This document shows positions 33,862 through 39,339 of a stretch of 54,216 bases of DNA, one piece after another; position 1 is the first letter of the stretch, and each line of letters opens with the position of its first letter. This DNA is from an uncultured Prevotella sp. GTDB lineage: Bacteria; Bacteroidota; Bacteroidia; Bacteroidales; Bacteroidaceae. The notes under the pieces were generated by a model. The model was not told the origin of the DNA. It ran no database searches and saw only the letters and a program-made list of their open reading frames with translations. Position numbers and translations under genes: made by a program. The stretch lies in NCBI GenBank assembly GCA_964655685.1, contig CAZZNO010000001.1, positions 1 through 54,216 on the forward strand, in the 5' to 3' direction.

Positions 33862-34788
33862 CTATAGCAGACGTTTGTGTCTTAGCACAACCCAGCACAA
33901 AGCGCTAACAAAAAATGCAATGGCGAGGGTTATTATAAATCCCCAATGGCTGTTCTCCAATCCGTTTTCTACATTCATTCCATATAATGAAGCAATGAAG
34001 GTGCCGGACATCATTATTATGGAAACCGATGTGAGAGTACGCATCGTGGTATTCATGTTGTTGTTGATGATGCTTGAGTATGTGTCCATAGTTGACTCAA
34101 GTATGTCTGAGTAAATGCTTGTGGTCTCACGTGCCTGCGTCATCTCAATGTTTACATCTTCGATGAGGTCAGCATCAAGTTCGTCTACTTGCAACTTGAA
34201 CTTTAGCTTTTGCAGCAGGTTCTCATTGCCACGTATTGATGTTATGAAATAGGTCAATGAGTCTTGTAGCCTCGACAGCCCAATAAGGCTTTCGTTGTTC
34301 ACCTCGTGGTCGAGATTATGCTTGGCTTTCTCTATAAGCGCGTTTATTTGCTTTAAGCGTTTCAGATACCATACGGCAGAAGATAGGAAAAGCCGGAAAA
34401 TGAGGTCTACATAGTCGGTGAATCCAACACCTCGTTTTTGCTGATAACTGACGAAGTCAATCATCATGTTGGTTTCATAATAGCACACCGTTATGGTTAC
34501 ATCTCTTTTGTGTATAATGCCGAGAGGTACAGTCGTATATGGCGTGCGTGAGCGAATCTCCTTGACGTAGGGTATACGCAAGATGATGAGCATCCAACCG
34601 TCGTCATACTCGTATCGGGCACGCTCGTCGGTATCGCTGATGTCGCTCATGAAATAGTCGGGTATGTTGAATTTGTCTTCCAGCTCACGCTGGTCGTCGT
34701 CAGTAGGGCATGTCACCTGAATCCAGCAGCCAGGCTGCCATTCGGGGATTTGTTTTAGTTGCTTCTCAATGTTCCAGTATGTTTTCAT
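33862..34788 (-). CDS. corA: CorA family Mg2+ transporter
   Basis: Large cytoplasmic domain (DTDERAR), INNNMNTTMRTLT, YGMN motif, two C-terminal TMs. Confidence 0.9.
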   Translation of the reverse strand: MKTYWNIEKQLKQIPEWQPGCWIQVTCPTDDDQRELEDKFNIPDYFMSDISDTDERARYEYDDGWMLIILRIPYVKEIRSRTPYTTVPLGIIHKRDVTITVCYYETNMMIDFVSYQQKRGVGFTDYVDLIFRLFLSSAVWYLKRLKQINALIEKAKHNLDHEVNNESLIGLSRLQDSLTYFITSIRGNENLLQKLKFKLQVDELDADLIEDVNIEMTQARETTSIYSDILESTMDTYSSIINNNMNTTMRTLTSVSIIMMSGTFIASLYGMNVENGLENSHWGFIITLAIAFFVSALCWVVLRHKRLL

Positions 34789-34948
34789 TGCGCTAATCTC
34801 CTTGAAATTAATAATGTGTGGGGATTAGCCGCTCAAAAGGTCTAATCCTCACGCTAAAAATTGTAATTGTCCGCGTGATAATCGTCCATAAATGCTATGA
34901 ATATTGATTTGTGAGTGCAAAAGTAAGCAAAATAACCCAACTGGCAAA
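34789..34948 (-). promoter_or_regulatory. corA promoter and about 125-nt structured 5' leader
   Basis: TTTG(34948-34945)-N19-TACTTTTG(34925-34918). Segments 34842-34852 and 34792-34801 are each complementary to 34818-34829. Confidence 0.7.
34854..34889 (-). CDS. Putative leader peptide (uORF) MDDYHADNYNF upstream of corA
   Basis: ATG GAC GAT TAT CAC GCG GAC AAT TAC AAT TTT TAG, lying between the promoter and alternative hairpins. Confidence 0.5.
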   Translation of the reverse strand: MDDYHADNYNF

Positions 34949-35019
34949 ATAATTATAAGAAAAAGACAAAGGATTTTTAAAGATATAATGTAGGAACAAC
35001 ATAAAATATCCTTTTTAAA

Positions 35020-35082
35020 ATACAGGGTAATAAAGTAACTTGATTTTCCTTTAAAAAACAATATTGCTTTATTACCCTGTAT
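35020..35082 (-). terminator. Long inverted repeat downstream of pepD
   Basis: atacagggtaataaagtaa / ttgctttattaccctgtat. Confidence 0.6.
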
Positions 35083-35111: not shown

Positions 35112-36572
35112 TTACTTTGTCTTTTCTGGTATCTGCTCAAGTGTGGCTGTGAGAAGTTTCCAGAATGGCTCGGCTGTATCAATCTTGAAGCGTTCGCTTG
35201 TAGTATGTGGCGACAGGAGTGTTGGGCCAAGTGAAACAACATCCATTCCAGGGTACTTGCTCAAGATGACAGAGCACTCAAGCCCGGCATGGTCTGCCTG
35301 CACTGCTGCTTCCTTGCCAGTCTGCTCTTTATAAACTTTTTTCAGCAAGTTCAGTATTTCGCTGTCCGGGTTGGGATCCCAACCGCCGTAACTGCCGCTG
35401 AGCTCAGTCTTCATGCCAGCCATAGAGAAGCAACTTTCAAGCATGGTTGCTACATATTCCTTCATGTCTTCACGACTTGAGCGTGCAAGAATCTTGATGG
35501 CTGCCTTCCCAGCCTCTATGTCTATGATGGCTAGATTAGATGAAGTCTCCACCACTGTCGGATAGGATGGAATCATTCGGATAACGCCATTGTGGCAAGC
35601 ATAGATAGCATCCACGAGATTGTCTTGTATTTCTTCTGGGACTATCTCCTTTGGGTTGTCTACATTTTCTACGAAAAATTCTACACCGCTCTCAATTCCA
35701 CGGAATTCATCCTCTATGGCGATACGTTGTTCCTCCACGAGGTCTTTCAAGGTCTCTACATTTTCCTTTGGCAATGCAAGCACCACCTCAGCTTTAAAGG
35801 GGATAGCATTGCGCATGTTACCACCATGCCATGAAGCTAAGCGTGTATCACATTCGGCAATGGCCTTGCGTACGAATCTAACCATTTCCTTGTTAGCATT
35901 CGCGCGTCCCTCATTGATTTCCAAACCGCTATGTCCGCCACGCAAGCCTTTTAGCGTAACACGAACTGCGCATTCCTGGTCGTTGTCGGCTGGTTTGTAT
36001 TCGAGTGTTGAGGTTATGTCAATGCCACCTGCTGAGCCGATGACGAACTTACCCCAAAGCTCTGAGTCGAGGTTCATCAAAATGTCGCTGTGCAATTCGC
36101 CCTCGGGCAACTCATTGGCACCGTACATGCCTGTTTCCTCATCTCGTGTTATGAGAGCTTCTACCGGGCCGTGCTTGAGGCTGTTGTCCTCCATTATACC
36201 CATGATTGCGGCTACGCCTATGCCGTCGTCAGAACCGAGCGTGGTGCCTTTTGCATGCACCCATCCGTCTTCGATGTAAGTCTCAATGGGGTCTGTCTCA
36301 AAGTTGTGGGTTGAGTCTGGTGCTTTCTGTGGCACCATGTCCATGTGAGCTTGCAGCAATACGGTTTTGCGGTTCTCGTAGCCGGGAGTTGCGGGCTTGC
36401 GCATCACGATGTTGCCGGCAGGATCCTTGAATGCCTCTACACCAACGCGTTTAGCAAAGTCAAGCAAAAACTGCTGTACTTTTTCAACATGGCCGCTTGG
36501 ACGAGGAATTTGTGTCAAGTCGTCGAAATTGCGCCAAATGGCAGCGGGCTGTAAATTTCTGATTTCGCTCAT
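35112..36572 (-). CDS. pepD: Aminoacyl-histidine dipeptidase (M20C)
   Basis: IPRPSGH, LQAHMDMV, GTTLGSDDGIG, DEETGM, GGHSG, HAGLEC, SPH. Confidence 0.92.
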   Translation of the reverse strand: MSEIRNLQPAAIWRNFDDLTQIPRPSGHVEKVQQFLLDFAKRVGVEAFKDPAGNIVMRKPATPGYENRKTVLLQAHMDMVPQKAPDSTHNFETDPIETYIEDGWVHAKGTTLGSDDGIGVAAIMGIMEDNSLKHGPVEALITRDEETGMYGANELPEGELHSDILMNLDSELWGKFVIGSAGGIDITSTLEYKPADNDQECAVRVTLKGLRGGHSGLEINEGRANANKEMVRFVRKAIAECDTRLASWHGGNMRNAIPFKAEVVLALPKENVETLKDLVEEQRIAIEDEFRGIESGVEFFVENVDNPKEIVPEEIQDNLVDAIYACHNGVIRMIPSYPTVVETSSNLAIIDIEAGKAAIKILARSSREDMKEYVATMLESCFSMAGMKTELSGSYGGWDPNPDSEILNLLKKVYKEQTGKEAAVQADHAGLECSVILSKYPGMDVVSLGPTLLSPHTTSERFKIDTAEPFWKLLTATLEQIPEKTK

Positions 36573-38390: not shown

Positions 38391-38535
38391 GCGTCTATGG
38401 CTTATGCCTTTTAGTGGTAAGCTTTCATAAAAGGGCGTAATTTTATGTTTTTGCTGTGTATCTGTGCGTAAACTTTATAGAAGTGACTTTGACGTTTGAA
38501 AAAAATATATTACCTTTGTGGCATACAACATAAAA

Positions 38536-39339
38536 ATGAAGCAAGTTAGACCGAAGAAGAATCTCGGCCAGCATTTCCTGACCGATTTGAACATAGCCAA
38601 GCGCATAGCCGACACTGTGGATGCATGTCCAGACATTCCAATACTTGAGATTGGACCAGGCATGGGTGTGCTCACTCAGTATCTTGTGGAAAAGCCGAGG
38701 GAGGTAAAGGCTGTGGAAATAGATGCCGAGAGTGTACGCTATCTGCATGAACGTTTTCCTAAGCTTAAGGACAATATCATAGGCGAAGACTTTCTGCGAA
38801 TGGACCTGAATAAGGTCTTCGATGGAAGACTGTTTGTGCTGACAGGAAACTACCCTTATGATATTTCTTCGCAGATATTCTTCAAAATGCTTGATTATAA
38901 AGATCTTATACCATGTTGCACGGGTATGATACAGCGAGAAGTGGCTGAACGTATAGCTTCTAAGCCTGGTACTAAGCAGTATGGCATTTTGAGTGTAATG
39001 ATACAGGCATGGTATGATACCGAATATCTTTTCACTGTAGACGAGAATGTTTTCAATCCACCGCCAAAGGTCAAGAGTGCGGTGATACGTATGACACGTA
39101 ATGGCGTGACGGACTTAGGATGCGATGAGAAGCTGTTCAAGCGGGTTGTTAAAACAGTATTCAATCAGAGACGTAAGATGTTGCGAGTGTCCCTTAAGCC
39201 GCTTTTCGGTAAGGACAACTTGCCATCGGCTGCATTCTTTGCTGAAAGTTTGATGACGCGGCGTCCAGAGCAATTGTCTGTAGCAGAGTTTGTTGATCTG
39301 ACTAATAGGGTAGGGACCGAAATGCATGCTTTGGCTTGA
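38536..39339 (+). CDS. rsmA: 16S rRNA m6,2A dimethyltransferase RsmA/KsgA
   Basis: KKNLGQHFL, LEIGPGMG, GNYPYDISS, MIQREVAER, FNPPPKVKS. Confidence 0.95.
   Translation: MKQVRPKKNLGQHFLTDLNIAKRIADTVDACPDIPILEIGPGMGVLTQYLVEKPREVKAVEIDAESVRYLHERFPKLKDNIIGEDFLRMDLNKVFDGRLFVLTGNYPYDISSQIFFKMLDYKDLIPCCTGMIQREVAERIASKPGTKQYGILSVMIQAWYDTEYLFTVDENVFNPPPKVKSAVIRMTRNGVTDLGCDEKLFKRVVKTVFNQRRKMLRVSLKPLFGKDNLPSAAFFAESLMTRRPEQLSVAEFVDLTNRVGTEMHALA

Follow-up and report, generated by a model that had tools for sequence, protein, structure and literature searches.

In Escherichia coli, the ribosome becomes unstable when acidic residues immediately follow fMet, and the effect grows at low Mg2+; MgtL exploits this destabilisation to switch mgtA (bioRxiv 10.1101/2021.02.02.429294; PMC11282234); bulky residues can offset the effect (bioRxiv 10.1101/2021.02.02.429294). 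In the mgtL leader, which is marked by an EPDP motif and Rho termination, completed translation of the uORF represses the Mg2+ importer, and low Mg2+ favours abortion (PMC11282234). The short mgtQ uORF of Salmonella sits in a PhoP-driven operon, after mgtC and before mgtB. Its Asp2 and Glu5 impede uORF translation, and alternative stems, one of which overlaps the uORF, hide or expose the ribosome-binding site of mgtB; control is translational, and the efficiency of uORF translation is inverse to transporter output (PMC8092293). In E. coli and Salmonella, the corL-corA leader joins a uORF with few acidic residues to a two-state, Rho-dependent leader, and here too uORF translation is inverse to corA expression (PMC11552253). 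The 'corA motif' is reported only from Gammaproteobacteria (PMC6429828). The M-box, a metal-binding aptamer that mostly controls a terminator, precedes corA and MgtE-fragment/Nramp operons (PMC4072509).

The window, i.e., the whole 54,216-nt stretch of DNA analysed here, carries ahead of a corA-family gene a leader whose short uORF begins with Met-Asp-Asp (the MDD leader). As in mgtL, acidic residues follow straight after fMet (Asp2-Asp3 in 86 uORFs, within the first six codons), and completed uORF translation would repress a Mg2+ importer, with low Mg2+ favouring abortion. The preliminary description of this locus had set the peptide apart from MgtL for its lack of Pro; this contrast falls away, since MgtL senses Mg2+ via N-terminal acidic residues and Asp2-Asp3 is invariant here. 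The two do differ in that the MDD core is DD, with no required Pro, and in that the helices of the MDD leader cover the corA start region. With mgtQ the MDD leader shares a short uORF whose second residue is Asp and, in our folding models, alternative stems, one over the transporter initiation region, between which the position of the ribosome chooses; translational control, with uORF efficiency inverse to output, would be a further likeness. In contrast to mgtQ, it has a promoter of its own, its trigger would be a ribosome at the stop codon, its target is mostly CorA, and its host phylum generally ignores SD sequences. It resembles corL in having a uORF and a two-state leader before corA, and in the inverse relation proposed between uORF translation and corA expression, but not in acidity or, probably, in Rho dependence. 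Its host phylum, Bacteroidota, separates it from the corA motif. The target set is similar to that of the M-box, but the conserved part is a reading frame; a classical amino-acid attenuator has a U-tract terminator and a biosynthetic operon, whereas the MDD leader lacks a recognisable terminator and stands before transporters.

No sequence match was found between the MDD leader and mgtL or mgtQ. The Rfam search of the window gave eight chance-level hits, all far under the gathering scores and none to the M-box, and the search of six related loci gave no hits. The preliminary description had recognised no Bacteroidota element of this kind, and neither Rfam nor the literature searched brought one to light: no Rfam match came near a gathering score, and no paper found described a corA uORF from Bacteroidota, although such a uORF might already be listed in catalogues of small proteins or of structured RNAs. 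A term search of PMC13000453 met no mention of corA. The MDD leader would operate like mgtL and mgtQ and is a member of neither, nor of the corA motif or the M-box.

The features of the locus are collected in Table 1. The preliminary description had placed the promoter, the uORF, the three segments and corA at positions that all agree with the minus strand base for base, and had proposed two mutually exclusive helices, 1:2 and 2:3, which indeed share segment 2. The two upstream boxes form what we take to be a Bacteroidota-type promoter (-33/-7 consensus), from which a transcription start near 34912 is predicted. A -7 box precedes the uORF start codon by 110 nt or less in 78 of 86 orthologous leaders, 59 of which have it at a distance of 24-31 nt; the transcript therefore probably includes the uORF. 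One RNA run (0.07 share) gave two contig pieces, both inside corA, with the leader outside their coverage. A long AT-rich inverted repeat (35017-35081) lies past a pepD-like dipeptidase gene (35112-36572, minus strand); it is probably the terminator of that gene, insulating the corA promoter.

Table 1. Coordinates of the MDD leader and its target gene in the window
Feature	Position	Strand	Remarks
-33 box TTTG	34945..34948	-	read from the sequence
-7 box (TAnnTTTG) TACTTTTG	34918..34925	-	19-nt spacer from the TTTG box
uORF MDDYHADNYNF-stop	34854..34889	-	ATG at 34889, TAG at 34856-34854; likely sensor
Segment 1	34842..34852	-	one base past the uORF stop; would be masked by a terminating ribosome
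Segment 2	34818..34829	-	strand common to helices 1:2 and 2:3; covariation
Segment 3	34792..34801	-	overlaps the corA initiation region; SD-like GGAG at 34801-34798
corA-family transporter gene	33862..34788	-	308 aa; ATG at 34788, three bases past segment 3

The duplex energies of the two helices are similar (-11.2 kcal/mol for 1:2 and -11.8 kcal/mol for 2:3). Folded alone, the leader is of modest stability (z -2.2; 4 of 200 shuffles equally good); the case rests on the conservation of the uORF and on covariation. Two features absent from the preliminary description were observed in the window: the uORF is able to pair with the beginning of segment 1, and a local hairpin (~34812-34793) partly covers segment 3, even in the 1:2 state.

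Orthologues were fetched by their corA protein, regardless of any uORF. This gave 96 loci, namely 27 loci and 69 of 101 family matches (the 29 best, the 20 most distant and 20 intermediate ones); in three the corA start could not be resolved, leaving 93. The preliminary description had proposed looking for a conserved MDD-type uORF upstream of corA, and one was present in 86 of these 93 orthologues, ending 52-107 nt ahead of corA, a count that overstates independence because the genomes are related. The background in the window's own genome, with start codons chosen mechanically, was 1 in 777 long ORFs with free upstream space, the single case being corA itself; the looser pattern M[DE][DE] occurred at 3 of the 777. 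The closest relatives are Prevotella, Segatella and Hallella, and all named relatives with the element are Bacteroidota, a few mixed bins aside. No MDD uORF was found at three Firmicutes corA homologues. One of these phylum members, Peptoclostridium acidaminophilum (L319), has a 23-codon MDPET uORF 160 nt ahead of corA, followed by an inverted repeat, which by its sequence appears to be an MgtL-like acidic/proline start unrelated to the MDD uORF. We conclude that the element is real and conserved, and that a regulatory role is very probable.

Seven of the 93 resolved orthologues lack an MDD uORF. In one of them (L026) the uORF appears in reverse orientation, flanked by long inverted repeats and adjoining a run of N; this is probably an assembly artefact, and possibly an invertible segment. 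At another locus (L275) the position of the uORF upstream of corA holds MND and then an immediate stop, possibly a decayed or minimal uORF.

The 86 uORFs, a set selected on MDD and thus all starting with it, are 8-22 codons long. Codons 3, 4, 5 and 7 change synonymously or conservatively: the Asp3 codon is GAT in 61 and GAC in 25, and position 7 is Glu or Asp in 60 of 86. Together with a variant that starts MED (L278), this mixture of Asp3 codons and the acidic position 7 suggest selection at the level of the peptide. Position 4 is Tyr in 75 and position 6 is Ala in 64 of the 86. Residues 4-7 are wholly different in Bacteroides-type leaders, such as the MDDSNPR uORFs of Bacteroides finegoldii and Phocaeicola massiliensis. 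That of Parabacteroides distasonis reads MDDSIP and that of a Flavobacterium MDDYYSE; since these uORFs diverge past residue 3, the universal core is Met-Asp-Asp. The uORF of the window contains no Pro, which among its relatives is found at position 5 in 14 and at position 6 in 10 of 86.

Some positions are constrained at the nucleotide level. Codon 2 is GAC in all 86 uORFs, and Ala6 is GCG in 64 of 64, though GCG makes up 12% of the Ala codons here; codon 6 is mostly NCG, with Ser there being TCG in 7 of 8. The rare codon CGA was observed at codon 7 in Bacteroides-type leaders, and the tRNA set of the genome is incomplete, no tRNA-Ala being found. Such constraint would be expected if the leader responded to a signal other than Mg2+ (translation stress, Asp-tRNA supply, or Mn, Co or Zn), or if it were a protein-binding site with an incidental peptide. 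A transport result points the same way: one tested MgtE-fragment-linked Nramp carried mainly Mn (PMC4072509). Nevertheless, we consider this very unlikely. GAC at codon 2 is explained because GAT there would make an out-of-frame AUG; ordinary Asp codons ahead of G are ~40% GAT, and a uORF starting MDDD (L024) reads GAC GAC GAT, as avoidance of such an AUG predicts. AUG is depleted near start sites in Bacteroidetes (PMC7797042). Furthermore, the frame, start and stop of the uORF are preserved throughout, and the uORF is tied to types of Mg2+ transporter, not to Asp biosynthesis.

For the analysis of covariation 51 leaders were aligned: 49 of the 60 most similar to that of the window, drawn from a pool of 98 non-redundant leaders and with 11 left out as poorly alignable, and two divergent ones added by hand. 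Helix 2:3 is paired in 89.6% of the cells (slid controls 18-49%, maximum 48.7%) and shows two-sided changes at 9 of 10 pairs, in 54 cells; 0-1 of 500 shuffles, which take no account of the relatedness of the leaders, reach this. In helix 1:2, 77.5% of the cells are paired and 35 have two-sided changes (0 of 500 shuffles), but 138 of 500 shuffles match it in the number of pairs with such a change. The preliminary description had named covariation in both helices as something to look for, and the alignment argues strongly for helix 2:3 and moderately for helix 1:2. The helix between the uORF and segment 1 was rejected as a conserved fourth element: it is pairable in 77% of the cells, and its covariation is not above shuffles (27-70 of 500).

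The effect of the ribosome was modelled by treating it as an unpaired block, with the cost of opening corA from -16 to +3 as output. Moving the ribosome from codon 3 to the stop raised this cost by a median of 4.3 kcal/mol in the 86 leaders (-0.4 with shuffled spacers); the rise exceeded 2 kcal/mol in 61 leaders, and 56 of 86 exceeded all 20 shuffles. Against a switch, the cost fell by more than 1 kcal/mol in 6 leaders, and the change was under +2 in 25. Whatever the length of the uORF, the rise was confined to its last one or two codons. It depends on the footprint assumed, with medians of 4.8 and, for a shorter footprint, 2.3 among 85 distinct leaders. The leader of the window is a weaker example because its local hairpin likewise covers segment 3: the rise is 2.9 kcal/mol with a 15-nt mask (reached by 2 of 20 shuffles) and below 1 with an 11-nt mask. 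Among 23 divergent leaders picked by hand, 19 exceeded all 20 shuffles, and the divergent leaders that switch include Flavobacterium-type leaders without an SD and two of three MgtE_N leaders. No modelled switch was seen in L035, L036 and L072.

These results suggest that the MDD uORF and the two mutually exclusive, covarying helices form a ribosome-operated Mg2+ switch on corA translation, a reading to which we assign a probability of roughly 0.6. With enough Mg2+, ribosomes would pass the acidic start, reach the uORF stop and unwind segment 1, whereupon segment 2 would pair with segment 3 across the corA initiation region (off). At low Mg2+, the short acidic peptide would destabilise the 70S ribosome that carries it, which would fall off or pause within the first few codons, as on MgtL; helix 1:2 would then persist, with the corA start freer (on). 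We speculate that the rare NCG codon 6 may extend the risky window. Mg2+ is proposed as the signal because the uORF is linked to several types of Mg2+ transporter (corA, MgtE_N-Nramp, rsmA-corA and CNNM). By analogy, the best reading of the MDD start is a sensor based on destabilisation of the ribosome by acidic residues, working like mgtL and mgtQ. A counterpoint is the frequent Tyr4 (75 of 86), a bulky residue. The genome of the window encodes bL31, and an EttA search gave two ABC-F matches, both under the family cut-off.

The same RNA switch could also be driven by stable arrest of the ribosome on an MDDYxA/E peptide sensing Mg2+ or another cation; the parked ribosome would block pairing of the uORF with segment 1 and keep helix 1:2. 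The strong bias at residues 4-7 of Prevotella-type uORFs is in keeping with arrest, as is the pairability of the uORF with segment 1, although the missing covariation of that helix speaks against it, and so do the wholly different residues 4-7 of Bacteroides-type leaders. In the models, naked RNA was more closed than early-masked RNA by over 1 kcal/mol in 27-31 of 85 leaders, as arrest would require, but overall the two were nearly equally open (median difference 0.1-0.3). We regard stable arrest as unlikely. Drop-off is favoured over it because only DD is invariant, because masking the early codons leaves the RNA hardly more open than when it is naked, and because a parked ribosome would cover the downstream main AUG in the -7 and +22 overlap layouts described below. 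The switch proposed in the preliminary description, with a ribosome at the uORF stop favouring 2:3, is thus borne out by covariation and by the modelling of 86 leaders, in which the flip is delayed until the final one or two codons; of its stalling upstream of the stop, the resulting 1:2 state stands, and a stable stall fits the comparative data less well than drop-off does.

A further alternative is transcriptional: finished uORF translation would expose the RNA to Rho-dependent termination, and hiding of the corA start would be secondary. Enterobacterial corL and mgtL act through Rho (PMC11552253), and a terminating ribosome is brief, so a decision taken during transcription might fix the state more easily. 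However, the best-conserved helix, 2:3, sits right on the initiation region, and the spacer between uORF and corA is short (52-107 nt) and largely paired. An intrinsic terminator was not found either, with no terminator-like site in the leader and five consecutive T in only 10 of the 86 spacers. Control mainly by Rho is therefore judged distinctly unlikely, although Rho might still come into play once translation is blocked. In the switch that we favour, the output is probably translational, with Rho as a possible second layer, as in corL.

The corA product matches PF01544 (E 1.8e-49; 169 bits against a cut-off of 27) and is under the TIGR00383 equivalog cut-off. It carries the GMN signature, as do all 55 full-length orthologues, and Mg2+ uptake by this CorA is inferred from the family and this signature. 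It is the only CorA found in the window's genome (92.5% complete), in which no MgtE was found. An SD-like word precedes 61 of the 93 corA orthologues, compared with 32 of 777 genes of the own genome and none of the 86 uORFs; a conserved GGAG or GGAGG of this kind is unusual for Bacteroidota, and ahead of corA or MgtE_N it is very strong in leaders of the Bacteroides type and in the MgtE_N leaders. As a rule, the ribosomes of Bacteroidetes disregard SDs, which are retained mainly at some ribosomal-protein genes (PMC7797042). The word at corA may either recruit ribosomes or only serve helix 2:3, and leaders without it still switch in the folding model. It may be read by destabilised ribosomes with a freed anti-SD.

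The MDD uORF is not confined to the corA layout of the window. A pattern scan of GTDB gave at least 120 matches; among the 120 listed, 113 lie ahead of corA (111 by motif and two by BLAST), three ahead of an MgtE_N-type gene, two run into the start of the rsmA gene that heads an rsmA-corA operon, one is at a contig end and one inside a gene. A looser pattern at order level (301 genomes) gave 27 matches, of which 11 are leader uORFs, nine at corA (including that of the window), one at rsmA-corA and one at CNNM-CBS-CorC; the remaining 16 are inside genes or without a neighbouring gene. At phylum level 15 of 401 genomes matched; among the three matches inspected, two uORFs (L181 and L183) are ahead of corA, and the third match (L178) is the same place as L047. 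Among 30 corA loci at class level, 13 have the standard layout, six an overlap layout and 11 no uORF.

Three loci (L194, L195 and L151) carry an MDDYPA uORF and a switch-like leader ahead of an MgtE_N/CBS gene, which is followed by an Nramp gene in both loci that were extended (NrmT-like). Elsewhere this arrangement of MgtE fragment and Nramp is controlled by M-box riboswitches (PMC4072509); no Rfam riboswitch was found in L134. The pair need not carry Mg2+, because one such Nramp carried mainly Mn, as cited above. In L047, L079 and L103/L197 an MDDYHAD uORF overlaps the start of rsmA, beginning 22 nt before its AUG in the +1 frame, and these rsmA-corA operons encode a CorA of a distant clade. 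Copies of rsmA also lie near corA in the window (38518-39339, plus strand) and, in L101, immediately ahead of the leader.

A 41-codon MDDYHAE uORF (L054:1501-1627, plus strand) stops one base before the AUG of a CNNM-CBS-CorC gene; the uORF stop adjoins the AUG, so control would be of the opposite sign, as suits an exporter. In this leader the modelled switch is absent until the ribosome is close to the stop. A general link to CNNM exporters was discarded, since the uORF is present at only one of 18 loci (none of the 17 other homologue loci of the family).

In the family f205 (L291, L342-L357), at all 17 loci with upstream DNA, the start codon of corA is preceded at exactly 7 nt by another AUG, with 14 starts reading MDDD and the others MNDD, MNND and MDHD; in f233 (L329 and L330) it lies 7 nt before the corA AUG in both loci and reads MEDD. 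From this upstream AUG runs an acidic, out-of-frame ORF that is 26-51 codons long, its acidity being partly forced by the Met-Ile start of corA itself, and no AUG at -7 was found in 12 corA loci of other families. In a CorA tree (a quick method, without a reliable root and with a very long outgroup branch) the -7 overlap group forms a separate subclade. The layout is a candidate for a structure-free abort-and-reinitiate or +1 frameshift switch.

It is conceivable, though we hold it only tentatively, that Met-Asp-Asp serves Bacteroidia as a minimal and portable sensor of Mg2+ in place of M-box riboswitches and is joined to several output layouts: i) the 1:2 / 2:3 helix switch ahead of importers (CorA and MgtE_N-Nramp); ii) a structure-free overlap, with the uORF AUG 7 nt (corA, f205) or 22 nt (rsmA-corA) upstream in the +1 frame, in which an aborting ribosome would be handed to the main start and a successful one would run on out of frame; and iii) stop-start coupling of opposite sign ahead of the CNNM exporter.

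No description of how Mg2+ uptake is adjusted in Bacteroides, Prevotella/Segatella, Parabacteroides or Flavobacterium was found in the literature searched, and corA is the sole Mg2+ importer found in this genome, among CorA and MgtE. The element can be tested in genetically tractable Bacteroides or Flavobacterium, and abort-and-reinitiate control could be examined directly in the 7-nt overlap layout. The SD-like word conserved at corA is relevant to the role of the SD in a phylum in which ribosomes usually disregard it. If our reading is true, destabilisation of the ribosome by an acidic nascent peptide would sense Mg2+ far outside the enterobacteria, and the motif would shrink to two aspartates across hundreds of natural variants.
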